From a virus (taxonomy: Duplodnaviria; Caudoviricetes): a stretch of DNA of 27,564 nucleotides. Below are positions 15 through 24,935 of the stretch, in pieces (positions within the stretch are counted from its first letter, which is position 1; every line of letters starts with the position of its first letter). The notes under the pieces are model-generated. The model was given only the letters and a program-made list of their open reading frames with translations. It did not search any database and was not told where the DNA came from. Location: the IMG/VR virus record IMGVR_UViG_3300021514_000012, positions 1-27,564 of that record; one strand, written 5' to 3'. A program made the translations under genes and the position numbers.

Positions 15-209
15 ATGCTCCTTCTCCTGATATTTACCTTGACGGGTTGCTCGACGCAGACCGCGCAGCGAAATCCGGCTTTGACTAAGGACTGCGATTA
101 CCCCGCATTAACCAAGGCACACAAGGCACCAAAACAACGTGATGTCGTACTGATTAAACGTGGTGAAGCTTTATCTGAATGCACTGCTAGGATGCGTAAA
201 CTCAGGTAG
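15..209 (+). CDS. Putative o-spanin (Rz1-like lipoprotein); may start upstream of the window
   Basis: Hydrophobic stretch LLLLIFTL then lipobox LTG-C; short mature part with Pro and two more Cys; frame is open to the window edge. Confidence 0.55.
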   Translation: MLLLLIFTLTGCSTQTAQRNPALTKDCDYPALTKAHKAPKQRDVVLIKRGEALSECTARMRKLR

Positions 210-399
210 CAGCCTTCTTGTCTTTTTTTCTTTGCTTCGTAATAAGTCGAGACACCTCTACACTGGCGTTCCTACCAGAGCATGTGTCTTTATGGATTGA
301 ACCGTCAGCGTTTAATGCGCCCCATTCACCACTGTCTAACTTCCTATTAAAAACCACTAAACCACATTTTTTACAGGTTGGTTGATTGTTTTTTTTCAT
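202..399 (-). CDS. Small basic hypothetical protein, possible Zn-binding (CxxC...HxxxC)
   Basis: AAAGGT RBS upstream of ATG; CKKC and HKDTC motifs. Confidence 0.65.
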   Translation of the reverse strand: MKKNNQPTCKKCGLVVFNRKLDSGEWGALNADGSIHKDTCSGRNASVEVSRLITKQRKKDKKAAT

Positions 400-416
400 G
401 ATTACCTTTTTTTAAA

Positions 417-438
417 TATAGAGATACCACGTGTTTCC
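417..438 (-). other. ColE1 RNA II/ori-like motif (GAAA tetraloop hairpin followed by TGGTATCT)
   Basis: Minus strand reads GGAAACACGTGGTATCTCTATA; pUC/ColE1 ori (from memory) reads GGAAACGCCTGGTATCTTTATA, 19/22 identical; local hairpin CGTG-GAAA-CACG. Confidence 0.4.
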
Positions 439-632
439 ACGATAAATTTTCCAATGGTGCATTACTGCAGACAAAGGGCACCCACACGCAGTCTATTGTC
501 ACGCTGTTTTGTGTCGCTCCCAGTACCATGGGATTGACGAGCGCCGTGGATATAATAAATAGCTCTCTGGTTTGGAATCCCAGAGCCTCGAGCGCCAACA
601 TGAGTGTGGGCTTGGTTTTTAAATGTTTTTTA

Positions 633-661
633 TTGACTTCAAGTGGTATGAGGAGGATACT
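633..661 (+). promoter_or_regulatory. Sigma70 promoter for the small antisense RNA
   Basis: TTGACT-17 nt-GATACT. Confidence 0.65.
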
Positions 662-667
662 CTTCAC

Positions 668-744
668 ATCACTTGTAGGTCGCACGCCAACCAAGCGATA
701 CGAGAATGCCCTATTCAGAGAAATCTGTCTAGGGTATTTTTTTT
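668..744 (+). ncRNA. Putative ~77 nt two-hairpin antisense (counter-transcribed) RNA
   Basis: Own promoter; hairpin 672-704 with loop ACGCCAACCAA; terminator hairpin 706-737 plus T8; complementary to the 5' end of the predicted leftward transcript. Confidence 0.6.
706..744 (+). terminator. Intrinsic terminator
   Basis: ATGCCCTATTCAGA-GAAA-TCTGTCTAGGGTAT followed by T-run. Confidence 0.75.
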
Positions 745-750
745 ATCTCA

Positions 751-779
751 ATAATACTGGTTAAATTTTACTCGTCTAA
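751..779 (-). promoter_or_regulatory. Leftward sigma70 promoter, back-to-back with the rightward one
   Basis: Minus strand TTAGAC-17 nt-TATTAT; predicted start near 744. Confidence 0.55.
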
Positions 780-808
780 TTGACACAGCCACTATCTGCT
801 AGTATCTT
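780..808 (+). promoter_or_regulatory. Rightward sigma70 promoter
   Basis: TTGACA-17 nt-TATCTT. Confidence 0.75.
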
Positions 809-815
809 CATAACT

Positions 816-1064
816 ATGAAAAAGCAAAAAATGATTAATCACATCAACATGCTGGCAACCATGAAAAAGGCGCTTGAGCGTAATCGTGGTAACTGGCCAG
901 CTATCGCTATTAAAGCAAAGGTCTCGTACAGCTGGTTGATTCACGTAATGTCAGGACACACTAAGAACCCACGTATTCAGGAATGTCAGCGCGTTCTCGA
1001 TGTTTTGCACCGGATGGCCATGAAGGATAATCCCAAACCTCAGCCATCCACGGCGGTGCAATGA
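816..1064 (+). CDS. Cro-like HTH transcriptional regulator, possibly leaderless
   Basis: WPAIAIKAKVSYSWLIHVMSGHTKNPRI resembles an XRE/Cro HTH; ATG at 816 lies at the predicted start site (the track's TTG start at 780 is the -35 box). Confidence 0.75.
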   Translation: MKKQKMINHINMLATMKKALERNRGNWPAIAIKAKVSYSWLIHVMSGHTKNPRIQECQRVLDVLHRMAMKDNPKPQPSTAVQ

Positions 1065-1103
1065 ACCGGTGCGGTCTAACTAAGGCAGTCGCACAGGTTT
1101 TTG

Positions 1104-1138
1104 GCTCGACGTGAACACATCACGCCGGGCTTTTTTTT
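1104..1138 (+). terminator. Intrinsic terminator
   Basis: GCTCGACGTG-7 nt-CACGCCGGGC followed by T8. Confidence 0.75.
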
Positions 1139-1154
1139 ATCTCAAACAAATAGC

Positions 1155-1183
1155 TTGCATAATTAAACTACCTCAACTATCCT
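1155..1183 (+). promoter_or_regulatory. Early sigma70 promoter
   Basis: TTGCAT-17 nt-TATCCT, followed by leader AGGAGAAGTGAGATG. Confidence 0.65.
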
Positions 1184-1219
1184 AATCTCAACAGTTAGAT
1201 ATTATTTAGGAGAAGTGAG

Positions 1220-1507
1220 ATGGAGTACGAAGCAAAATTTGCTGCAGCTAATATGACGCTGGAAGCAATCCGCAAACAAATTGAATTTGTTCACGACCTG
1301 AATGAATCTCTAAATCTAAAACCCACCCTCGAGCAGTATGAACTGCTTACTAAGTCAGCTATTACATCAATTGCCAGTTACAACCAACTAATCATCGATA
1401 TTAATGACATTGGCGAAATGCTCAGGAAGAAAAGTAACCATAGCGATGATGATTGCGGTTGCGTAGAGCTCGGTAGCGAGTGCCCATCGTGTGAGGTGGA
1501 ACAATAA
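1220..1507 (+). CDS. Hypothetical protein
   Basis: Strong AGGAG RBS; helical body, Cys-rich C-terminus. Confidence 0.75.
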   Translation: MEYEAKFAAANMTLEAIRKQIEFVHDLNESLNLKPTLEQYELLTKSAITSIASYNQLIIDINDIGEMLRKKSNHSDDDCGCVELGSECPSCEVEQ

Positions 1508-1710
1508 TGGCTATGTATAGATGTGAGGAATGCGACCAACTTATAGATGGTGATTACTTTCCTTGCGTTGAGCACCCAACCATCCCGGAAGCATTTTGTT
1601 GTGAGGAGTGTGCAGCTAATCTCGAAGAAGAGGTTGAGATGCAAAAAGAATTTAAACGTATGCGCTCGGCTAATCAGCGTGAAGTTGAGTCAGGCTTAAG
1701 GAGAAAATAA
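1507..1710 (+). CDS. Small Zn-finger-like hypothetical protein
   Basis: CEEC...CCEEC; TAATG stop/start coupling. Confidence 0.7.
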   Translation: MAMYRCEECDQLIDGDYFPCVEHPTIPEAFCCEECAANLEEEVEMQKEFKRMRSANQREVESGLRRK

Positions 1711-1899
1711 ATGTACCTGAAATTAAGAGCTAAAACCGGTGGTGGTCATACGCATGTCACCTTTTTTATGGGCCAAGGCTCAAATTACACGCTGGCAAAC
1801 TGTGGCACCATTGTTGTGAACAATAAAGACCTGCCAGCATTTTTAGGCCGTATCAAGGCCGATGTCATTGAGGATGTAAATGAAAATGATAAGCCGTAA
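1711..1899 (+). CDS. Hypothetical protein
   Basis: AGGAG RBS; abuts neighbouring genes. Confidence 0.7.
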   Translation: MYLKLRAKTGGGHTHVTFFMGQGSNYTLANCGTIVVNNKDLPAFLGRIKADVIEDVNENDKP

Positions 1900-2185
1900 C
1901 CAAACAATTACCGAAGAGCTAAAGGCTCTCGATGACATGATTGAGAAACTAGTTATTGAGCGTGACGTTTATCGTTCCGAGCTGGCCTTACTTTTATGCC
2001 CATTCAGCCTTGACCAAAAAGTTATTAACAAACAAGGGGAGAAAGCGGTTGTTACCACCATTAGTTGGAGCAGCTTTTCCGAAAAATACAAAATGAAGGT
2101 AACGAGAATAAAGAAGAACGGCGAACTTTATCTTGGTGACCAGCGTGTTTGGAGTCGTGATGAATGGAGTGCCTGCGATGAGTGA
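1880..2185 (+). CDS. Hypothetical protein
   Basis: GAGG RBS; tight operon packing. Confidence 0.7.
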   Translation: MKMISRNQTITEELKALDDMIEKLVIERDVYRSELALLLCPFSLDQKVINKQGEKAVVTTISWSSFSEKYKMKVTRIKKNGELYLGDQRVWSRDEWSACDE

Positions 2186-2378
2186 AGAAAACAAACCGGT
2201 TTATCTCGATAGCTACGAGCCTGACTATGAGCAGGAGTGTGAAAATTGTGGCCAGACCCCAGTAGTGACCGGGGTAGCAAAAGGTAAAGTGGTGTACGAC
2301 TCTGGCATGTGTGGACCGTGTACCTTTGGAACGGCTCGGGCAATCGACCCGGCTTGGTGGAACTCAGACGAGGATTAG
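2178..2378 (+). CDS. Small Zn-finger-like hypothetical protein
   Basis: ATG 2178 after GGAG; CENC...CGPC. Confidence 0.7.
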   Translation: MSEENKPVYLDSYEPDYEQECENCGQTPVVTGVAKGKVVYDSGMCGPCTFGTARAIDPAWWNSDED

Positions 2379-2382
2379 TAAA

Positions 2383-2583
2383 ATGCTTGATTGCTATAAC
2401 TGTAAATATAAACGAAATATCCCCGGTGACGCCCATGTCAGCTGTGTAAACCATGACCCAAAAGTGAAGGGTGATGCGCACGGTATTGAGAGTGGCTGGT
2501 TTTTTTACCCGTTAAATTTTGACCCTATCTGGGGTAGTGGCTGCACAAACTTTGAAGCAAAGGAAAATAGAAATGACAGATGA
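2383..2583 (+). CDS. Small Cys-containing phage protein
   Basis: ATG 2383 after GAGGA; CYNC...HVSC...GWFFYPLNFDPIW...C. Confidence 0.7.
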   Translation: MLDCYNCKYKRNIPGDAHVSCVNHDPKVKGDAHGIESGWFFYPLNFDPIWGSGCTNFEAKENRNDR

Positions 2584-3379
2584 AACCGAACAGGTTGACC
2601 AACCAGAAATAGAAGAACTGACAGAATCTGAAGTCGAACGCATTAGTGGCCTCAATATTTACCAGCGCGTTAACGAGGTTCGAAAAGACATCTCATATCT
2701 GCGTAAAGAGAAGCAGGTTGGCTCCGGCAACATGTCTTACAAAGTTGTGACTCATGACCAAGTGACCGGTGCTATTCGTGAATTACTCATTAAGTATGGC
2801 GTGATGGTGGTGCCGAATGAGCTGGACGGTCAGGTTATTTTAACCGGAACAGAGACAGCTGGCGGCACTCCATGGATTCGTTATGAGTCCAAGTACCGCA
2901 TCTCATTCGTTAACTGCGACGACCCTGACCAGAAAATTGACATCGAGGTGGCGGCACATGCATTGGATACCGGTGATAAAGCTCCCGGCAAAGCACTGAG
3001 TTACGCAACCAAAATGGCAATGCTGAAATTATTCTCCATCGAGACAGGTGAAGATGAAGAGGAACGCCCAGAACAACGACGTGGCGACGAAGGGTTCACC
3101 CCGCAGAAACTCTATAAGCGAGCATCGCTTCACATGACTGCTGTTATGGACAACATCGAAACAGTGACAGCCATTAAAGGCTACTTGGCTGCTGGTGATT
3201 TAGACGCAGCCGCTGAGGCATGGGCCGAGGTTACCGACGTCAAGGTTATCAGTGCGCTGGCCATGGCACCAACCAAAGGTGGCTGCTTCACTGTTGCTGA
3301 AGGCAAACTTATGAAGAGTGATGAGTTTAAAGGCTTCATGCTGAATCATCGTCAAGACAATCCGTTAGTTGGATTATAA
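2573..3379 (+). CDS. erf: ERF-family single-strand annealing (recombination) protein
   Basis: NIYQRVNEVRKDI...DTGDKAPGKALSYATKMAMLKLFSIETGEDEE matches the ERF signature; ATG 2573 after AAGGA. Confidence 0.85.
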   Translation: MTDETEQVDQPEIEELTESEVERISGLNIYQRVNEVRKDISYLRKEKQVGSGNMSYKVVTHDQVTGAIRELLIKYGVMVVPNELDGQVILTGTETAGGTPWIRYESKYRISFVNCDDPDQKIDIEVAAHALDTGDKAPGKALSYATKMAMLKLFSIETGEDEEERPEQRRGDEGFTPQKLYKRASLHMTAVMDNIETVTAIKGYLAAGDLDAAAEAWAEVTDVKVISALAMAPTKGGCFTVAEGKLMKSDEFKGFMLNHRQDNPLVGL

Positions 3380-3382
3380 GTC

Positions 3383-3619
3383 ATGACCGACACATGCAAA
3401 AAATGGAGGTCAAGCATAATCAAGATGGTTGAAGACGAAGGCTGCGAATTTATAGAGCTGCGCTGGCACCGTAACCATCTCAAGATATATACAGTTTTAC
3501 CCAGCGGCGAAGAGTTCTTTTTTGTTACCTCATCGTCACCCTAAGACAAACGGTCCTTTATGAATTTAAGGTCCAGCGTCAGAAAAAAAGTAAGGAGCAT
3601 AAATGATGGCACGATGTAA
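3383..3619 (+). pseudogene. Small phage gene (HicA-like fold) interrupted by an in-frame TAA at 3542-3544
   Basis: MTDTCKKW...HRNHLKIY...VTSSSP*DKRSFMNLRSSVRK; frame continues coherently after the stop, where a S/T-P-S-D-x-R motif is expected. Confidence 0.6.
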
Positions 3620-3950
3620 ACATGGCAAAACAGTATCAGACGAATTAATCGAGTCCCTGCCTGAAAATCAAGGCGGACCGGGTCGACACAAGTGTGTAGT
3701 TTGCGCTTATAAGGCTGGCATTAATGCTGGCAAACTTCTCCCAAAATCAAAGGAGGGTGAGGCGTGGGTATTACGTAATAAAAATTATTACATCGTCTTC
3801 CCCCCATGTAGCGGTATAGCGGCACACACTTTCACCGTCATGGCAAAGGCCGAGCATGGTATTAAGCTATCCTACGCACAATTAACCCAGCGTATTGTTA
3901 GCAAGCTTGACTTACTTACTGCTGGAACGCTCAACAAGAGGTCATTATGA
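3603..3950 (+). CDS. Hypothetical protein
   Basis: AAGGAG RBS; CKHG...HKCVVC. Confidence 0.7.
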   Translation: MMARCKHGKTVSDELIESLPENQGGPGRHKCVVCAYKAGINAGKLLPKSKEGEAWVLRNKNYYIVFPPCSGIAAHTFTVMAKAEHGIKLSYAQLTQRIVSKLDLLTAGTLNKRSL

Positions 3951-6505: not shown

Positions 6506-6672
6506 ACCTGAAAGAAATAGTTGACGTATTACGGGTGGTAATTTCAACCTCCCTGCTGGTGGTTAGCGGGTACATGGCAATCATTAGTAATGTCGATGGC
6601 TGGGGTTGGTTCTTATTCGCTGGGTTATTTATTTACCCGACGCAAATCAACATCGACTTTAAGGAAAGATAA
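6502..6672 (+). CDS. 56-aa membrane protein (not in ORF track)
   Basis: MNLKEIVDVLRVVISTSLLVVSGYMAIISNVDGWGWFLFAGLFIYPTQINIDFKER; coupled to both neighbours. Confidence 0.7.
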   Translation: MNLKEIVDVLRVVISTSLLVVSGYMAIISNVDGWGWFLFAGLFIYPTQINIDFKER

Positions 6673-7253
6673 TGACAAAGGCTGAGCTGACTGAGTGGTT
6701 TAGTGACACCTTCTGGCAAACTTATCTGCTTTTAGTTAAGACACCGTTCCCGACCAAATTTAAGCAGGGTAACCGTGGTCAGGCACTGCAGAAAATATTA
6801 TCCATGAACCCATCGGCTGACTTACGCGAGCGGATACAAGCATCATTACTGGCTCAAATAAGGAACCGCAAAAAATTATATAGCCAGTGTGGCTCGATGC
6901 AGAAATACATCGAACGCACTGAGTACCAGAAACTATATGCAAACAGGCATTGCTCAACTTGGTTGAACCAAATGGGCTACGAGGATGAGATACCAACCAT
7001 TGAACAGGTTGAGCTGGAGACACCCGGCGTAGCTCTCACATGCCAGAATAAGGACTGCAACGAGGAACGCATGGGCCCAACGGTTCCATGGTGCCAGCGC
7101 TGCTACCCGGACACACTTTGCTGGACCCCATTACTTAGAAAACAATTTAAGAAAATGGGCTTGGTAAAAAACGAAGGCGAGACCACTGAACAGTGGAACA
7201 GCCGCATTAAACAGGAAGGCATTAAAGCCATCCGTAATAGACTGAAAAGGTGA
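6672..7253 (+). CDS. Protein resembling the C-terminal domain of phage replication/replisome-organiser proteins, plus a Zn finger
   Basis: F..FWQTY...P.K...A...HCSTWLNQ..YEDE; CQNKDC...CQRC; no N-terminal wHTH apparent. Confidence 0.5.
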   Translation: MTKAELTEWFSDTFWQTYLLLVKTPFPTKFKQGNRGQALQKILSMNPSADLRERIQASLLAQIRNRKKLYSQCGSMQKYIERTEYQKLYANRHCSTWLNQMGYEDEIPTIEQVELETPGVALTCQNKDCNEERMGPTVPWCQRCYPDTLCWTPLLRKQFKKMGLVKNEGETTEQWNSRIKQEGIKAIRNRLKR

Positions 7254-9066: not shown

Positions 9067-9069
9067 GTA

Positions 9070-9098
9070 TTGACTAGCTAGTTTAATTGTACTATCGT
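9070..9098 (+). promoter_or_regulatory. Early sigma70 promoter
   Basis: TTGACT-17 nt-TATCGT, followed by leader AGGAGAAGTCAGATG. Confidence 0.7.
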
Positions 9099-10415: not shown

Positions 10416-11192
10416 ATGTTCAAGCTAATAGCGGGTCCCTGCGTAATTGAGTCAGAAGAACTCTGTATGTCAGTAGCCACTCACATGAAAAAGATTGCAG
10501 ACCGCCTTGGTCTCGATTATTACTTTAAAGCCAGTTACGACAAAGCCAACCGCACCTCTGCAAGCAGCGTTCGTGGTCCGGGCCTACACGAAGGTGTCCG
10601 CATCCTCGAGAAGGTTAAGCGTGACATTGGTGTCAAAATCCTCACCGATGTCCATGATGTACGGCAAATGAACTGGGTGGCTGAGTCCACTATCGACGTC
10701 GTTCAAATTCCAGCATTACTATCTCGCCAGACTGACCTCATCCAAGCAGCAGCCAAGTCAGGCAAAATTGTGAACATCAAAAAAGGCCAGTTCATGAGCC
10801 CAGTTGATGCATTGATGGCTGTTACCAAAATTAACCCAAAAGAACCCGGCATGGTCTGGCTCACTGAGCGTGGTACCACTTTCGGTTATAACAATCTGGT
10901 TGTGGATATGCGCTCACTAGAATCCATGAAGAGTGAAATGATTCCAATTATCTTTGACGCTACTCACTCTGTGCAACATCCCGGTGGCCATGGTAGCCGT
11001 TCATCTGGTGACAGACGGTTCGTCGAGCCATTGGCCCGTGCAGCCGTTGCTGTTGGTGTTGATGGTCTATTCTTTGAGACACACCCAAGCCCGGACATCG
11101 CTTTATGTGATGGACCCAACATGGTGCCACTGGACAAGATGGAACCTATGCTCGAGCGATTAATGAAAATTCACGAGGCAGCGAATGACTAA
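10416..11192 (+). CDS. kdsA: 3-deoxy-D-manno-octulosonate 8-phosphate (Kdo8P) synthase
   Basis: LIAGPCVIES, FKASYDKANRTS, QIPALLSRQTDL, NIKKGQF, ERGTTFGYNNLVVDMR, FDATHSVQ, LFFETHP.P..ALCDG. Confidence 0.95.
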   Translation: MFKLIAGPCVIESEELCMSVATHMKKIADRLGLDYYFKASYDKANRTSASSVRGPGLHEGVRILEKVKRDIGVKILTDVHDVRQMNWVAESTIDVVQIPALLSRQTDLIQAAAKSGKIVNIKKGQFMSPVDALMAVTKINPKEPGMVWLTERGTTFGYNNLVVDMRSLESMKSEMIPIIFDATHSVQHPGGHGSRSSGDRRFVEPLARAAVAVGVDGLFFETHPSPDIALCDGPNMVPLDKMEPMLERLMKIHEAAND

Positions 11193-11385
11193 AACAAATT
11201 ACAGCGCACCCCCGGCAATAATAGCAGCGTGGAGAGAGCAGGCTCGCCAAGCAGAGCCGAGAATGAAGTTTATTAGTAAGTGGTTGGCTTTTGACAAGAT
11301 TCGCAGACAGCCATTTTTTGGTGAACATAAGCCAAGAGACGTGAATAGAGTTTACATTGGTATAGATTGGGCCAAAAAAGCATGA
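11185..11385 (+). CDS. Hypothetical protein
   Basis: Overlaps both flanking genes by a few bases. Confidence 0.55.
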   Translation: MTKTNYSAPPAIIAAWREQARQAEPRMKFISKWLAFDKIRRQPFFGEHKPRDVNRVYIGIDWAKKA

Positions 11386-11981
11386 ATAATATTTTCAGCC
11401 ACCACCTCCATGTATGTCAGGACGTTATGCGCACTGGCATTTACGCAATGAGCCCACTTGAAATTGATGCAGCCATCGAACTGGTGCGAAGGTTCGACCG
11501 GGTGATTATCTGCTCAATGGGGAAACCTGCCTTCGCCGTAGCCAAAACCGTGTACACCGCTCGAAGCTTCGGACTTGACTGGCATGAGCTTGATGCCACT
11601 CACGCTTTTCATGGTGATATGGGTGTCATTAAACAGTTCGACCTCGTTATTATTGTATCGAAGTCTGGCGAAACTAAAGAAACAACCGAGGTGGCTAAAG
11701 CCTTATTTAGCGAGGGCCATGTCACACTGGCCATCACTTCAGACCCGGATAGCGAATTACCAAAGTGGTGTACTCACAAACTAATCGTTCCGGTAATGGA
11801 AGAAGCATCCCCGTTTGGCTATGCACCAATGGCATCCACCACCCTGTACATGATGGTCCTGCACGCATTATTGTGTGAGGCTATCGACGCTCAGGGTTGC
11901 ACCATCGAGCAATATTCCAAGAACCACACGTCCGGTGCTATCGGACAATCACTGGCTGAGGCCGTAAAGGAGAAAGCATGA
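11382..11981 (+). CDS. kdsD: SIS-domain arabinose-5-phosphate isomerase (KdsD/KpsF/GutQ-like, no CBS domains)
   Basis: MGKP...K..T..SFG, AFHGDMG, SKSGETKE, EEASPFGYAPMASTT, H.SGAIG; ends after the SIS domain. Confidence 0.8.
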   Translation: MNNIFSHHLHVCQDVMRTGIYAMSPLEIDAAIELVRRFDRVIICSMGKPAFAVAKTVYTARSFGLDWHELDATHAFHGDMGVIKQFDLVIIVSKSGETKETTEVAKALFSEGHVTLAITSDPDSELPKWCTHKLIVPVMEEASPFGYAPMASTTLYMMVLHALLCEAIDAQGCTIEQYSKNHTSGAIGQSLAEAVKEKA

Positions 11982-18810: not shown

Positions 18811-20259
18811 ATGGCCGAGACATTACACCAGCTATTGCAGAAGACGCAAAAGCTCCACAACGAAGCATCTGAACAACGTAATTTCAAGGGTCTCGAGCAG
18901 GCACTTGAACAATACAATCAGCTGTTAAATATGGCTCCCGACGAAGCACACCTCGTATTTCTCGTGGGTACAGTCAATCTCCAATTGGGTAACAACGGCA
19001 CCGCTATCAACATGATGATGCGAGCCCAGCAACTTGCACCCAAACCATTACCTGAAATCTGGAACAACATGGGGTCAGCTTATAAAGCCGAGCACATGGA
19101 TAAGGATGCAGAGCATTGTTTCCTTAAGGCTTTAGAGTTAAATGAAGTCACTGACTACTACAACAACCTGTCCACCCTCCACATCAACAGCGGCACTCCA
19201 GAGAAAGGATTGCCATTCTCACGTAAAGCACTCGAACTTGATGAAATGAATGTCAAGGCACATTGGAACCTGTCGCTTGTCCTGCTTGAGTTGGGTCAAT
19301 GGTCAGAAGGTTTTGCTGAGTACGATGCAGGCATCCTGACTCATGACCGGATGGACCGACACTACGACAACAAGCAATCGATTCCATACTGGCAAGGACA
19401 GGACCTGACCGATAAAACCATTGTGGTGTACGGTGAGCAGGGACTGGGTGACGAAATTATGTTCGCCTCAGCCTTGCCTGACCTGATTGCTACCGGGGCT
19501 CGTGTCATCTATGAATGCCATGAACGTCTCGAGACAGTGATGCGTCGCAGCTTCCCTGAATGTGAGATTTATCCTACAAGAAAGTCTGACTACATTGACT
19601 GGCCAAAGAACCGTAAAATCGATTACCGCTGTGCTATTGGTACGCTGTTCCGTTGGTTCCGTTCTGATGGACAATTCCCACGTAAGCAATACCTCAAGGT
19701 AGATGAGGCCAAAGTCAGCCATTATCGCAGCATGATTGAACAACTGGGTGATGGTCCTTACATCGGTATCGGTTATAGCGGTGGCCATAAGAAGACCCAT
19801 GGACATGCTCGGTCACTGCAACTCACACCACTCAAACCTATTCTTGAACAAGACTGCACCTTCGTCTCATTACAATACTCTGATGGTGCCGGTGATAAGT
19901 TCGAGCGATTCCATAACGACACTGGTATTCGTGTTCACCACTTCCCGGAGGCGACTGAGGCATGGGAGTCTGAAGGCGTAAAGAACCCGGGTTGGGATTA
20001 TGACGAAGCACTGTCACTGATGGCAGCGATGGACTTCTGCATCCTACCCAATACCACAGCGGTACATGCATGCGGTGCATTGGGTCAGAGCGTCTGGACA
20101 CTGACACCTGATGCCTGCGCTTGGCGTTATGCGCAAGGCGGACCAAGAATGGTGATGTATGGGAATTGGGTTACACAGTACCGTGAAAATGGAGACTGGG
20201 GCAAAGCCATCAACTCAATGGCTAAACACCTAGAAATGAGGATTAGTGATGGGCATTAA
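18811..20259 (+). CDS. TPR-repeat plus GT-B glycosyltransferase (GT9-like / FlmG-like architecture)
   Basis: N-terminal TPRs (EIWNNMGSAY, YYNNLSTLH, AHWNLSLVLLELGQWSEGF); WQGQDL..KTIVVYGEQGLGDEIMF; FVSLQY; HACGALG. Confidence 0.85.
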   Translation: MAETLHQLLQKTQKLHNEASEQRNFKGLEQALEQYNQLLNMAPDEAHLVFLVGTVNLQLGNNGTAINMMMRAQQLAPKPLPEIWNNMGSAYKAEHMDKDAEHCFLKALELNEVTDYYNNLSTLHINSGTPEKGLPFSRKALELDEMNVKAHWNLSLVLLELGQWSEGFAEYDAGILTHDRMDRHYDNKQSIPYWQGQDLTDKTIVVYGEQGLGDEIMFASALPDLIATGARVIYECHERLETVMRRSFPECEIYPTRKSDYIDWPKNRKIDYRCAIGTLFRWFRSDGQFPRKQYLKVDEAKVSHYRSMIEQLGDGPYIGIGYSGGHKKTHGHARSLQLTPLKPILEQDCTFVSLQYSDGAGDKFERFHNDTGIRVHHFPEATEAWESEGVKNPGWDYDEALSLMAAMDFCILPNTTAVHACGALGQSVWTLTPDACAWRYAQGGPRMVMYGNWVTQYRENGDWGKAINSMAKHLEMRISDGH

Positions 20260-20584
20260 AGCAAGACCTTTGGATGAGCGGTTTCATGAAAACTACATCC
20301 CTGTGACTGAGACCGGCTGCTGGCTATGGGAGAAGGCTGGTAACGGTCGATATGGTGACTTTCAGTTATCAAAGATAAACGGGAAAAGGTTAAGAATGTC
20401 AGCTCACCGATTTAGTTATGAGTTGCATTACGGGCCAATTCCAAAAGGTATGAGCGTATTACATAAATGTGACGTAACAATGTGTGTGAACCCAGACCAC
20501 CTAACCCTTGGTACACAAGACGACAACATGAAAGATATGGTTAAAAAAGGTCGTCACTGGAGTCAGACGTGGAGGAAGCAATGA
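20249..20584 (+). CDS. HNH endonuclease, homing-type
   Basis: GCWLW...YG...AHRFSY...GPIPKGMSVLHKCD...CVNPDHL..GT...NMKDM..KGR. Confidence 0.9.
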   Translation: MGIKARPLDERFHENYIPVTETGCWLWEKAGNGRYGDFQLSKINGKRLRMSAHRFSYELHYGPIPKGMSVLHKCDVTMCVNPDHLTLGTQDDNMKDMVKKGRHWSQTWRKQ

Positions 20585-21273
20585 AAGCAATTATCGTAGG
20601 CCATGGTCCGAGCATCATGGGTGAAAAAATGGGTCATCTCATTGATGAGTATGACGTGGTTATCCGACTTAAACGGTGTCAGGAAACATTGAAGATGCCT
20701 GAATACTTTGGCACCAAGACCGACATCGTAGGTGGTTCCATGACCATTGCTGGTGGCTTACGAGAGATAGCAGTTAAGAATGGGTACTGGGTTTTCCTTG
20801 ACTCACGTCATGAGAACTTGCCTGACAGTAATATCGATGTCATAAAGCGAATCTTCAAAGGTTACGGTACCGTTCACATCAATCAGGAACTGTGTGATGA
20901 GTGGGATGCGTTGTACCGGGAAGCACGTACCGATGTCGAATCCTTCCCAAGTAACATGGACTTAAAGCACAAATCGTGCGACGAACGCGGTGAAAGACAC
21001 CTATCTCAGGGTTTTAAAGCGATTCTATATGCCTGCACTTACATCGATGAGCTGACCCAGTTAACGCTGGTTGGTTTCGATAACATCATGCTTGGTGAGT
21101 TCAACTGGTCCATCACTCGTGGTCCTGATTGGACACACTACCCTCCACATCGTTGGGACATTGAGCACAAACTACTCAAGGCCGTTGAAGACACTTACGG
21201 GGTTGAGATTGGTTACTTATTACCTGAACAAAAAGAGGAGGTGCCAGATGGAAACAAGTCCGAGAATGGTTAA
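20581..21273 (+). CDS. GT29-like (sialyltransferase-like) glycosyltransferase
   Basis: Sialylmotif L-like IVGHGPS...G.LIDEYDVVIRL...GTKTD; S-like LSQG..AI...LTLVGFD; VS-like HRWDIE. Confidence 0.75.
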   Translation: MKAIIVGHGPSIMGEKMGHLIDEYDVVIRLKRCQETLKMPEYFGTKTDIVGGSMTIAGGLREIAVKNGYWVFLDSRHENLPDSNIDVIKRIFKGYGTVHINQELCDEWDALYREARTDVESFPSNMDLKHKSCDERGERHLSQGFKAILYACTYIDELTQLTLVGFDNIMLGEFNWSITRGPDWTHYPPHRWDIEHKLLKAVEDTYGVEIGYLLPEQKEEVPDGNKSENG

Positions 21274-21433
21274 CTTTTGGTACTGGTTGGTAAACATGCT
21301 ACCTAAAAGGCTGGTTTATTTCAGCTTTATGCATGTTATTGCACACGCTACTACCGGAAAGCACGGCAACACAATCGTTCCAGAGCTAACAGCAATGGAA
21401 GCAATAGAACGCTACGCAAAGGATAAATTATGA
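21248..21433 (+). CDS. Small hypothetical protein
   Basis: GGAGGT RBS before ATG 21248; ATGA overlap with next gene. Confidence 0.6.
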   Translation: METSPRMVNFWYWLVNMLPKRLVYFSFMHVIAHATTGKHGNTIVPELTAMEAIERYAKDKL

Positions 21434-22746
21434 AGCAAACAATTAAAGTGGTGAGTTCATTCGCACCTGATGGATATAAACTCTACGGCCAAAAGTTCAT
21501 TAAGTCATTCCTGAAACATTGGCCTGAAGACGCTGAGCTTCACATTTATCATGAAGATAAAAAGCCTGCTTATACCCATAAGAGAATCAAGTATCACAAC
21601 CTATTTAAAGTGCCCGGCTGTATGCCAACACTACAGGCTCTTGGCACCTTCCCGGTGACACAAGGACAAATTAACGGTAAGCGTATCTATCAGATGGATG
21701 CCTTCCGTTTTGTTCGTAAGATGTTCTCCCAAGTGGATGCTGCTACCGGGTTCGATGGTCTGCTTATCTGGTTGGATGCTGATACAGAGTTCTTTGAAGA
21801 TGTGCCTGACGAGTGGATTCGTGACCGGTTTATTAACCGTGAAGACGACCTCGGTCTTGACCATTCACTCACCTTCATGACCTATATGGGTCGACCTGAC
21901 TGGCACATGTGTGCTTCGTTCATTGGTTGGAACTGTGCTCACCCACATAACCCATCATTCTGGAAGGCTTATTATGAACTCATCTTGAGTGGCCACTTCC
22001 TGATGCTACCGGAATGGCATGACTGTTACTGGATTGACTTCCTGCGTGAGCAAATGAAGTTCGATGCTGTGAATATGTCCAGTGGTATGGCACTCGGTAA
22101 AGGCCCTGTGAACGTGTTTAACAAGGTATTCGGTACCATGGGTAAACATGCCAAAGGTAACCTGAAGTTTGCTCAGGGACCACAACGCTACGCCCAGCTC
22201 ATTGATATTGTGAAGCAATTGAAACCCAAGACCGTTATCGAGATTGGGACATGGAACGGGGTACGTGCCGTTGAGATGCACAAGGCTTCACCGGGATTTA
22301 AGTACGTTGGTTTCGACCTGTTCGAGTCCGCTACTGATGAGACTGATGAGTATGAAAAGAATGTAAAGCCACATCATCATGCTGAAGACGTATCCAAGAT
22401 GCTAAATAAAGCGGGTATCGATGCACTGTTGTTCGCGGGTGACACCAACGAGACCTTCCCTACATTCCTTGGCACCTTCCCTAACCAGAAAATTGACCTC
22501 ATCTATATCGATGGTGGCCATGCTGTTGGGACCATTAAGTCTGACTTCGAATGCGCACTCAAAGCAATTGCCCCGGGTGGGATGATTGTCCTTGATGATT
22601 ACTATGAAGACATGCCAGATGAGAACATTGAGAAGTGGGGCTGTAACAAAGTGCTCGAGCGCTCAGGCTTAATGTTCGACGTATTGCCTATCGGTGACCC
22701 GGTGAAGGGTGGTGGCGTGACTAAGATGGCGGTCGTTCGGGGCTAA
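21430..22746 (+). CDS. Fusion of GT-A-like domain and class I SAM methyltransferase (Methyltransf_24-like)
   Basis: N-half LIWLDAD and EWHDC; C-half VIEIGTWNG, YVGFDLF, DLIYIDGGH, GGMIVLDDY. Confidence 0.8.
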   Translation: MKQTIKVVSSFAPDGYKLYGQKFIKSFLKHWPEDAELHIYHEDKKPAYTHKRIKYHNLFKVPGCMPTLQALGTFPVTQGQINGKRIYQMDAFRFVRKMFSQVDAATGFDGLLIWLDADTEFFEDVPDEWIRDRFINREDDLGLDHSLTFMTYMGRPDWHMCASFIGWNCAHPHNPSFWKAYYELILSGHFLMLPEWHDCYWIDFLREQMKFDAVNMSSGMALGKGPVNVFNKVFGTMGKHAKGNLKFAQGPQRYAQLIDIVKQLKPKTVIEIGTWNGVRAVEMHKASPGFKYVGFDLFESATDETDEYEKNVKPHHHAEDVSKMLNKAGIDALLFAGDTNETFPTFLGTFPNQKIDLIYIDGGHAVGTIKSDFECALKAIAPGGMIVLDDYYEDMPDENIEKWGCNKVLERSGLMFDVLPIGDPVKGGGVTKMAVVRG

Positions 22747-23291
22747 TGCTGATTAGCGATTACTATCGGGAGATGAATATCCATCTCCATAAGCATGCTC
22801 ACTATGGTGCTCGTGGTGGTAAGTGGTACCCGGCTGTTCTTGAATTAATGGGTCATTACTGCACTACCGATGTACTGGATTATGGTGCTGGTAAGCAGTC
22901 ACTCAATGATGAATTACCTAATGTCACATCTTATGACCCAGCTATCCCGGAAATCTCACGTTTACCTGACATCCACGATATTGTTGTATGTCTGGATGTG
23001 TTAGAACACATCGAACCTGACTATCTAGAAGAAGTATTGCTCCATCTGTTTGCTGTGACGAAGGTGATTGGCTTGTTTGTTATCGCTACACGCCCAGCTA
23101 GGAAGACTTTACTGGATGGCCGTAATGCTCATCTGATTATTAAGCCAACAGTCTGGTGGATGAGTCATGTAGGTAAGTATTTTAAAATCATCGAAGTGCT
23201 GGAATTGCGTGACGGTGGTGAACTTGTTTTATATGTAAAACCTCGGAGGAAAGACAATGCAACACCAAGCAAAAATTACCGACCGGATTGA
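22746..23291 (+). CDS. Class I SAM-dependent methyltransferase
   Basis: VLDYGAGK, YDPAIP, DIVVCLDVLEHIE, DGRNAHL. Confidence 0.85.
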   Translation: MLISDYYREMNIHLHKHAHYGARGGKWYPAVLELMGHYCTTDVLDYGAGKQSLNDELPNVTSYDPAIPEISRLPDIHDIVVCLDVLEHIEPDYLEEVLLHLFAVTKVIGLFVIATRPARKTLLDGRNAHLIIKPTVWWMSHVGKYFKIIEVLELRDGGELVLYVKPRRKDNATPSKNYRPD

Positions 23292-24234
23292 CAGTATCAC
23301 CGGGATGACTGACGAACATCGTCACACCATCCTCAAGGCACCAAAGTCGGTCAAGATTGAACTCTCACCACGATGTAACTTTCGTTGTGGCTTCTGTGCA
23401 TTACGCACCCGGGAGAAGCAACCAAAGGACGATATGGACTTAGATATGTTCAAGCGCATCACCAAAGAAATGTATGACGCTGGCGTTGAGGAGATTGGCT
23501 GCTTTTATCTAGGTGAGTCAATGATGGCACCTGAGTTGTTGGTTAAGGCCATTACTTACTTGAAGCAAGAACTCAAGATGCCTTATGTGTTCCTGACTTC
23601 AAATGCTTCACTGGCAACCCCGGCTGTCGTAAAACAACTCATGGAAGCTGGTTTAGACTCACTGAAGTGGTCTGTTAACGCTGGCGACGAAGACCAGTTC
23701 AAAGACATCATGGGTGTAAAAACCAACCTGATGCACGATTCGTTGATGAATATCGAAGCAGCGTGGACGGTTCGTGAGACGGGGAACTACGCAACCAACC
23801 TGTACGCTTCATCTATCCAGTACGATGGTGAGCAAGCAGATAAAATGGAATCATTACTCGATAAGCACGTTCGACCGTTCGTTGATGAGCATTACTTCTT
23901 ACCGCTGTACGGCATGGCTGTGGCTTCTAAGCACATCAAAGAAGAGTTAGGTTATGTGCCAAACCATGGGAATGTGGGTCGTGTGGGTGCTATCCGTAAG
24001 CCTATCCCATGCTGGAGTGCCTTCACTGAAGGTCATGTGCGTGTAGATGGTGGCATGAGCGTCTGCTGCTTTGGTGCTGATGAGCGTTTCGACGTTGGCA
24101 ATTTAAACGATAAGTCATTCATGGATTTATGGAACTCTGAGAAGTTTCAAGAGGTTCGAGCAGCACATCTCCGTGCTGAAAAGAACGGTATCGGTGAACT
24201 GGCTGGCACAATGTGTGAGGTATGTATCGAATGA
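23257..24234 (+). CDS. Radical SAM enzyme with SPASM/Twitch domain
   Basis: CNFRCGFC (CxxxCxxC); C-terminal C...VDG..SVCC...VGNL...DLWN...CEVC. Confidence 0.9.
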   Translation: MQHQAKITDRIDSITGMTDEHRHTILKAPKSVKIELSPRCNFRCGFCALRTREKQPKDDMDLDMFKRITKEMYDAGVEEIGCFYLGESMMAPELLVKAITYLKQELKMPYVFLTSNASLATPAVVKQLMEAGLDSLKWSVNAGDEDQFKDIMGVKTNLMHDSLMNIEAAWTVRETGNYATNLYASSIQYDGEQADKMESLLDKHVRPFVDEHYFLPLYGMAVASKHIKEELGYVPNHGNVGRVGAIRKPIPCWSAFTEGHVRVDGGMSVCCFGADERFDVGNLNDKSFMDLWNSEKFQEVRAAHLRAEKNGIGELAGTMCEVCIE

Positions 24235-24935
24235 TGCCATTACGAATTTTCATTGGTTTCGACCAAGCTGAGGCGGTTGCGTACCACACGTTATGTCACT
24301 CCATCCTGTCCCGGGCAAGTGCCCCGGTCTCCATCATCCCCATCAAGCGCAGTTTGCTGAAGGGCCTGCATACTCGCAAGATTGATTCAAAGCAGTCGAA
24401 CGAGTTTGCCTTTACTCGATGGTTGGTGCCGTACCTGTCTGGCTATGAAGGTTTTAGCGTGTTCATGGATTGTGACATGTTAGTAACTACTGATATTGTT
24501 GAGTTGTTTGACCTTGCTGACCCAAGTTTTGCTGTACAGGTGGTGAAGCATGATTATGTTCCTCACGACAAAGTAAAATATCTCGATACGATTCAATATC
24601 CATACGAGAAAAAGAACTGGTCATCAGTGGTGCTGTTCAATAACGACGCATGTCGCTCACTGTCAACCGGGTACGTGGACCAAGCAACCGGGCTGGAGTT
24701 ACATCAATTCAAGTGGCTGCAAAACGACAAACTTATTGGTGAATTACCGGCTGAGTGGAACCACCTTGTTGGTGAGTACCCCAAGACTGATAAACTGCCT
24801 AAGTTGATTCACTACACCGTGGGTGGTCCTTACTTCAATGAGTTCGAACACGTTGATTACGCTGAAGAGTGGTTCAGTGAACGTGCGCAGATGACAGCCT
24901 GCCTGCAACGACAGCGACCGGAGGACGAAGCTTAG
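24231..24935 (+). CDS. GT-A glycosyltransferase (GT8-like, similar to the plant CDI-type family)
   Basis: IFIGFD, SNEFAFTRWLVPYL, FMDCDML, KNWSSV, EWNHLVG, IHYTVGGP. Confidence 0.85.
   Translation: MMPLRIFIGFDQAEAVAYHTLCHSILSRASAPVSIIPIKRSLLKGLHTRKIDSKQSNEFAFTRWLVPYLSGYEGFSVFMDCDMLVTTDIVELFDLADPSFAVQVVKHDYVPHDKVKYLDTIQYPYEKKNWSSVVLFNNDACRSLSTGYVDQATGLELHQFKWLQNDKLIGELPAEWNHLVGEYPKTDKLPKLIHYTVGGPYFNEFEHVDYAEEWFSERAQMTACLQRQRPEDEA

Follow-up and report, generated by a model that had tools for sequence, protein, structure and literature searches.

In tailed phages, the decision between growth and quiescence is usually made by a protein repressor. In the phage DNA analysed here, the cI position is occupied instead by a predicted RNA unit and a leftward zinc-finger gene, and the question is what this unit does. 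A sequence-only reading took it for a possible plasmid-type, RNA-primed origin under antisense copy control; antisense control of the zinc-finger gene, or no antisense pair at all, may be considered as well. The window, i.e. the whole stretch of DNA under analysis, comprises 27,564 bp and corresponds to the entire contig, in which no terminal repeat was found. It is a partial podophage genome from which the tail-to-lysis part is absent. Metagenome runs with the window's sequence are labelled hydrothermal vent metagenome, and run X1 may be the source of the contig. In run X2, 10 of the 11 pieces compared with the window were at least 99% identical, and the near-identical pieces of runs X2 and X3 contained no variants between 200 and 2400.

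A scan of 49 ORFs identified the end of a spanin gene, a Cro-like repressor, Erf, SSB, NinB, HNH, a second HTH protein and DUF932, followed by KdsA/KdsD-like genes, terminase, a P22-like portal and capsid. The KdsA-like synthase and SIS-domain (KdsD-like) genes (10416-11981) are located directly upstream of the terminase, and TPR, methyltransferase and radical SAM genes are found among the head genes (18811-24935). An integrase, cI, a primase, a helicase or a complete initiator was detected neither in these 49 ORFs of the 27.5-kb fragment nor in a further scan of 27 ORFs. The same two scans yielded no partition, resolution/resolvase or plasmid Rep genes in this genome fragment without terminal repeat. 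The genes and the rightward promoter around the unit are as follows.

15..209, plus strand: Rz-like spanin, end of the lysis cassette (phrog_456, E 2.4e-4; Pfam LysC below cutoff)
202..399, minus strand: 65-aa zinc-finger ORF, CxxCG...GxW...NxDG..H...C, with an AAGGU ribosome site 5 nt before the ATG
780..808, plus strand: promoter-like site of the rightward early operon, TTGACA-17-TATCTT, 10/12
816..1064, plus strand: Cro-like repressor (phrog_9425, E 2.3e-10; 32% identity with PAJU2 Cro)

The spanin gene may begin before the contig end; at its 3' end it shares a tail-to-tail overlap with the zinc-finger gene. The cro message may be leaderless, because the cro ATG (816) lies only 7 nt past the -10 box (808-818 region). 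A relative of the Cro protein, P0003, shows 61% identity. Directly after cro, a second two-hairpin unit (1060-1145, z -4.3) ends in 15 nt identical to 737-751 (1131-1145). The heptamer ATCTCAA at 745, 1139 and 1185 is a possible operator half-site.

The predicted RNAs and their promoter-like sites lie between the zinc-finger gene and cro.

633..661, plus strand: small RNA promoter-like site, TTGACT-17-GATACT, 9/12, past an A/T tract
668..744, plus strand: predicted antisense RNA of 77 nt, a weak 5' hairpin followed by a terminator hairpin (702-736) and U8
751..778, minus strand: long RNA promoter-like site, TAGACG-16-TATTAT, 9/12, back to back with the cro promoter
400..744, minus strand: predicted long leader RNA of about 345 nt, its start placed from the promoter-like site only

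Two convergent promoters had been proposed at 633-661 and, leftward, at 751-779. The sites are present where they were placed, but each matches 9 of 12 positions, and their number is at chance level (six promoter-like sites in the region versus 4.8 +/- 2.3 in shuffles). Weaker leftward promoter-like alternatives at 517 and 474 are closer to the zinc-finger gene. A third promoter-like site (TTGACT-17-TACTAT) occurs at 9069-9097 before the DUF932 gene, and TATTGACT is common to it and the site at 633. The proposed two-hairpin unit of about 77 nt with a terminator ending at 744 was recovered as a predicted RNA: 668-744 comprises 77 nt, and folding of 668-750 gave two hairpins plus U8 with z = -4.47, a value equalled by 1 of 200 shuffles. 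The low fold energy derives mainly from the terminator hairpin. This hairpin has a GAAA loop and prefers the plus strand (-19.6 versus -11.5 kcal/mol); the terminator at 702-744 was missing from the listing of a pattern scan.

On the minus strand, folding of 380-745 gave z = -3.15, with 0 of 100 shuffles as good. Three segments at the 5' end of the leader form two mutually exclusive helices.

706-692, minus strand: segment X, pairs with Y in the target hairpin
660..678, minus strand: segment Y, with X (target hairpin) or Z as exclusive partners
637..655, minus strand: segment Z, rival partner of Y, inverted repeat I2 and 13-nt imperfect repeat of X
658..706, minus strand: target hairpin X-Y, 19 pairs including 5 G-U, loop GCGUG/GGCGUGC
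470..610, minus strand: downstream multi-stem leader domain, the same in constrained folding with or without the antisense-covered part

The target hairpin prefers the minus strand (-16.3 kcal/mol versus -8.9 on the plus strand). The Y-Z helix reaches -15.7 kcal/mol on the minus strand versus -22.4 on the plus strand. In stepwise folding, X-Y formed at transcript lengths of 80-95 nt (ends 665 and 650) and Y-Z from 115 nt onward (end 630). None of 3000 shuffles reached the joint X-Y/Y-Z energy, the two pairings being free to be on different strands; about a dozen other genome windows, mostly more GC-rich, matched it. In the folding model, the nascent leader is thus predicted to refold from X-Y to Y-Z, as in ColE1 and MRB RNA II. 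The stronger Y-Z helix on the plus strand fits a longer plus-strand transcript or a DNA palindrome and is unexplained by the antisense model. The claim that the small RNA overlaps the 5' end of the long RNA holds for the layout in sequence and folding, with strand-specific G-U helices and an X-Y/Y-Z switch, while both RNAs are predicted ones only.

The resemblance to kissing-loop systems fared less well. CGCCAA occurs at 685-690 on the plus strand, and UUGGCG at 690-685 on the minus strand overlaps the target loop; the two had been read as a kissing pair. In the best folds, the loops are CGCAC in the antisense RNA and GCGUG in the target (5-7 nt; GGCGUGC in near-optimal folds), and only 1 of the 6 hexamer bases is looped, the hexamer being off-centre and partly paired. 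CGCCAA is fully looped only in alternative folds with an RNA start at about 669-670. A further copy of the motif was unnoticed in the sequence-only reading.

593..599, plus strand: second CGCCAAC, read in the leader as GUUGGCG immediately past AUG 601

Among 5000 shuffles, the fraction with two copies of CGCCAAC was 0.0006 and that with one copy 0.055, figures uncorrected for the many windows scanned. A duplex between the small RNA seed and 599-593 was calculated at -15.7 kcal/mol, and a seedless site gave -14.0. The second copy lies in a plus-strand hairpin (576-620, -12.3 kcal/mol), after which T5 comes at 616. With a perfect TATAAT upstream of it (552-557), this hairpin is possibly a second small RNA or an insulating terminator.

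The long RNA had been described as running without a convincing gene. This description does not stand: ORF 399-202, the only convincing leftward gene, possesses the AAGGU site, gene-like codon usage (+0.07 per codon) and homologs. Eight matches besides itself were found at E<=1e-3; one was left out by eye as a repeat-protein artefact and seven were aligned. Invariant are C9, C12, G13, G24, G33, H36 and C40, in the pattern C-x2-C...H-x3-C. Family scans of the ORFs returned no known family for the 65-aa protein. The homologs are located at five viral loci (four distinct) and one genome locus, in early operons or beside other genes, and the stretches examined upstream of them contained no similar RNA unit. 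In 400 sampled genomes, the zinc-finger profile had one match, and one more was unscored. In two loci (L125/L126), a 190-aa ORF, presumably an initiator, immediately precedes the zinc-finger gene. A complete temperate phage of 59.9 kb (G003) has a noncoding stretch with G5-TTA-G6 directly upstream of its zinc-finger homolog (L128, 1226-1239). Judged from its sequence, this stretch would fit an R-loop origin better than the window does.

The leader upstream of the gene is open in one frame from 742 to 371.

371..694, minus strand: 107-codon ORF with TTG 694, also GTG 685 and ATG 601, frame open from 742, a possible leader frame

It overlaps the zinc-finger start by 29 nt. In 5000 shuffles, the chance of such a stop-free frame was 0.0024 on the same strand and 0.0074 on either strand. 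The codon score of -0.14 lies between those of genes (minimum -0.06) and of shadow ORFs (median -0.23). The ORF is without a ribosome site, and homolog searches with it were empty. The frame recalls plasmid R1, in which control is reportedly exerted through a leader peptide.

The preferred reading, given a probability of about 0.4, is that the 77-nt antisense RNA may control the leftward zinc-finger gene, possibly via the stop-free leader frame. The nascent leader would first fold X-Y, exposing the GGCG-containing loop. Some 30 nt further on, Z would capture Y and the target hairpin would be lost. Because the target hairpin is short-lived, only small RNA already in the cell could catch the leader. 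The resulting 77-bp duplex would silence the zinc-finger message indirectly, either by double-strand cleavage and decay or by a block of leader-frame translation; the ribosome site would not itself be hidden by the duplex. On entry into a naive cell, a burst of zinc-finger protein would be expected, followed by repression as the small RNA builds up. As the unit stands at the cI position, it would sense genome dose and perhaps act as immunity.

Direct masking of the zinc-finger ribosome site was rejected. With 744-668 held unpaired in constrained folding, this site and the 610-470 domain were almost unchanged, so that no direct folding link leads from the antisense RNA to the ribosome site. A leftward terminator made by antisense binding was likewise rejected; the one candidate, a weak hairpin with UUUAUU at 559, forms whether or not the antisense RNA is bound. 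A single-stranded DNA hairpin origin is regarded as improbable, its DNA energies being only -4.7 to -8.6.

The antisense reading draws on observed sequence elements, folding statistics and protein homologies, the RNAs, their pairing and their function being predicted. Points in its favour are the strand-specific helices, the two partners of Y, the real gene family downstream, the frame running into its start, the unrelated phage units with looped CGCCAA located before protein genes and the absence of cI and integrase from the 49 ORFs scanned. Against it stand the chance-level promoters and the weak leftward sites closer to the gene, the mostly paired hexamer, a leader ORF with intermediate codon usage and neither ribosome site nor homolog, the stronger Y-Z helix on the plus strand, the missing folding link to the ribosome site, the dozen or so genome windows of equal joint energy and the lack of a similar unit in the stretches examined upstream of zinc-finger homologs.

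Known antisense systems allow a closer placement of the unit. Lambda OOP and P22 Sar are phage antisense RNAs which cover a coding region or ribosome site directly. They resemble the window's small RNA in size (about 70-77 nt), in having their own promoter and terminator and in their position in a phage control region; unlike them, the small RNA is positioned upstream of the start codon, at a distance of 270 nt. ColIb-P9 Inc/repZ and R1 CopA/CopT share CGCCAA/UUGGCG at the first hairpin and a long leader with an open frame into the start of the next gene. In contrast to these systems, the hexamer of the window is off-centre and partly paired, and no CGCC partner for a pseudoknot is found near the ribosome site. 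The gene that follows encodes a 65-aa zinc finger, not a Rep protein, and there is no Rfam match. In the available part of one source, the hexamer belongs to I-complex systems controlling a rep message (PMC10724649).

For RNA-primed origins, ColE1 and four Vibrionales plasmids named in the supplement of PMC8683028 served as controls, the latter for the MRB type, with RNA II limits set by eye. CGCCAA was present in the RNA I/target region of none of the five. G-rich tracts have a role in hybrid formation. G5-6 tracts occur in RNA II of all five controls; in the window, the longest G runs are G3 within the leader and G4 at position 323. The best blastn hit of the window to ColE1 and the four MRB-type plasmids had an E value of about 1. 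A search for Rfam families, suggested with the sequence-only reading for RNAI, CopA, Inc and PAGEV, matched no family in the window, RNAI and PAGEV included, while two of the four plasmids scanned as controls were matched (RNAI in ColE1, PAGEV in pPHDP10). No relatives of the RNA region were found in annotated phages or in 72,556 plasmids. A gapped pattern scan returned at least 120 loci, none similar among the matches listed. Queries with Cro and the zinc finger gave no related locus in viral contigs or genomes, and in metagenomes only the window's own record (L121).

The ColE1 RNA I/RNA II pair, as far as the accessible text of PMC8683028 describes it, is alike in its 5' overlap and in the predicted refolding of the nascent long RNA. 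It differs in having three hairpins where the window has two, in length (about 100 versus 77 nt), in GC content (55% versus 42%), and in the G6 tract and RNAI match, both absent from the window. According to the available sections of PMC3035462, MRB origins are free of ORFs; their RNA I, about 68 nt long, forms two stem-loops and falls within an RNA II of about 465 nt. In the MRB plasmids pB1067/pES213 of Vibrionaceae, as in the layout predicted for the window, the small RNA has two hairpins and a promoter and terminator of its own, and the longer RNA from the opposite strand covers it fully (PMC3035462, same sections). A further parallel is that the small RNA promoter falls within the helix that the long RNA forms next. 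The switch plan is alike because, in folding, the MRB target hairpin likewise gives way to a longer helix that spans the RNA I promoter. The window differs from MRB in its lack of sequence similarity, of a PAGEV match and of G5-6 tracts; in addition, a gene with a ribosome site follows, and the setting is a phage control region. An ORF-free origin region, as in MRB, is not what was found, since the 65-aa gene and the 107-codon frame are present. The unit of the window may work like ColE1/MRB at the switch, but would not be a member of these groups. PAGEV is termed plasmid-associated in the text at hand of PMC5737381, and the accessible part of a phage-plasmid survey contains no mention of ColE1 (PMC7969092). 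In the literature covered, mostly open-access papers, no proteobacterial phage was found to carry an RNA pair of the ColE1/MRB kind. Non-RepA prophages of cluster A mycobacteriophages possess RNA-based origins beside parABS, with proven replication (PMC7157519, as far as available). They resemble the window as tailed phages that lack repA and have a noncoding RNA region; no par genes were found in the window, and an origin there would be hypothetical, whereas theirs is proven.

The only initiator-like product of the window is a stand-alone protein.

6672..7253, plus strand: 193-aa protein, O-like C-terminal half without the N-terminal DNA-binding half

Its profile matched residues 97-167 of the 'DNA replication protein' of Rhizobium phage RHph_Y1_10 (hmmsearch E 9.4e-5 among 3297 ORFs; hhalign 95%). 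The match of the protein to phrog_270 reached only E 0.12, and leads to Phg_2220_C and a replisome organiser remained below threshold. The structure model is poor (pLDDT 63, pTM 0.39); it had no fold match at E<=0.001, and no solved structure was matched by sequence. Four homologs of 193-196 aa were obtained in a search limited to 106-338 aa. They represent a stand-alone initiator C-terminal family with a four-cysteine tail; in L130 (1305-1895) the gene is located between the small and large terminase genes, with no control region. L131 contains a stop-interrupted 23-residue match to the profile.

Similar units were sought in other viral contigs. A scan for a promoter, CGCCAA and T6 found 43 loci (31 distinct), and a permuted hexamer also found 43 (25 distinct). 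A stricter filter demanded a terminator of -12 kcal/mol or better and at least five hexamer bases in the loop. It left 3 of 31 loci for CGCCAA versus 0 of 25 for the control hexamer, a suggestive difference that does not reach significance at these numbers; the window itself does not pass. The three remaining units, unrelated to the window, lie opposite leaders of protein genes. Control of a protein gene is favoured as the usual output of such units. In L168 (about 830-3722), a two-hairpin RNA with looped CGCCAA lies opposite the leader of a DnaD/initiator-like gene and beside a partition protein, making it a candidate phage-plasmid with an antisense-controlled replication gene. A 68-nt unit with a perfect CGCCAA hexaloop and a terminator occurs opposite an early phage operon (L151, L185 and L186). 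As a near miss, L162 (about 2000-2110) combines promoter, hairpin and terminator opposite an integrase leader, downstream of a repressor gene.

Three other explanations compete with antisense control of the zinc-finger gene. The region may hold no antisense pair: 702-744 would be the late (lysis) terminator before the early promoter, the zinc-finger gene would be transcribed from a separate promoter close to it, and a palindromic regulatory region would have given rise to X-Y, the hexamer and the site at 633-661 as by-products. Between the spanin stop and 737, no plus-strand terminator is stronger than -12.3 kcal/mol, and the terminator after cro is followed by the identical 15-nt tail (737-751 = 1131-1145). 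Promoter matches at chance level, the stronger Y-Z helix on the plus strand, a single hexamer in 5.5% of shuffles and the equal yield of 43 loci for CGCCAA and control in the promoter-hexamer-T6 scan point in the same direction. A plain terminator nevertheless leaves the G-U-rich hairpin specific to the minus strand unexplained, as well as the three-way X/Y/Z repeat (0 of 3000 shuffles), the two CGCCAAC copies (0.0006) and about 390 nt without a gene-like ORF in a gene-dense genome; it is regarded as rather unlikely. Convergent arrangement of a small RNA and a small protein is a common toxin-antitoxin plan. A real small RNA might thus act as antitoxin against a harmful product of the zinc-finger gene or leader ORF, or in trans on other messages via its CGCCAAC seed, for which the second seed match at 599-593 (-15.7 kcal/mol) could be invoked. 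The duplex energy is uncontrolled, with -14.0 kcal/mol at the seedless site; the zinc-finger protein is not a hydrophobic peptide, and its homologs occur in phage early operons without such a unit. This possibility is judged very improbable.

The proposal of an RNA-primed replicon would make the long RNA a replication pre-primer or an origin-opening R-loop, which replaces the DNA-binding half of the initiator under antisense copy control, the phage persisting as a plasmid. What survives of it is the layout, parallel to MRB RNA I/RNA II, and the switch plan, with a target hairpin refolding likewise in MRB RNA II. The absence of cI, integrase, primase, helicase and complete initiator from the scans, with an O-like C-terminal half only, agrees with it, as do the lack of an effect of antisense binding on the ribosome site in folding, the position of the zinc-finger gene after the presumed initiator in L125/L126 and the RNA-based origins of mycobacteriophage prophages (PMC7157519, in the part available). 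The step to an RNA-primed replicon is weak, because a real gene follows the leader and G5-6 tracts are absent (longest G run 3 in the leader, 4 at 323, versus G5-6 in 5/5 controls). Similarity to ColE1, the four MRB-type plasmids, the 72,556 plasmids and Rfam RNAI/PAGEV is lacking; CGCCAA is missing from the control RNA I/target regions and is typical of systems controlling a rep protein; and the 27.5 kb yielded no par or resolvase genes. The complete temperate phage G003 carries the same zinc finger and no O-like profile match, yet has integrase-like and repressor-like ORFs by eye; a missing initiator therefore does not imply a plasmid state. The RNA-primed origin is considered improbable, and retains some weight, since the contig covers only part of the genome and its one initiator-like gene encodes just the C-terminal half of an O-like protein. 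In its fullest form, one RNA pair would do the work of cI and also of the DNA-binding half of the O-like initiator in a podophage without repressor and integrase. The long RNA would open or prime the origin; the 77-nt RNA would determine copy number as well as immunity, and helicase loading would fall to the orphan C-terminal domain. Only a small probability is assigned to this variant.

If antisense control of the zinc-finger gene is real, an RNA-timed control module would be added to phage biology, the whole unit being compact at about 600 bp. It would also open a first way into the study of a zinc-finger family and of stand-alone initiator C-terminal domains. If the variant with one RNA pair were true, the locus would represent a ColE1/MRB-like replicon that arose independently and has no G tracts. 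An RNA-only origin in a phage would not be unprecedented, because RNA-based origins are known in mycobacteriophages. Should the long RNA also prime replication, a further type of RNA-only replicon with a compact new origin would be added.
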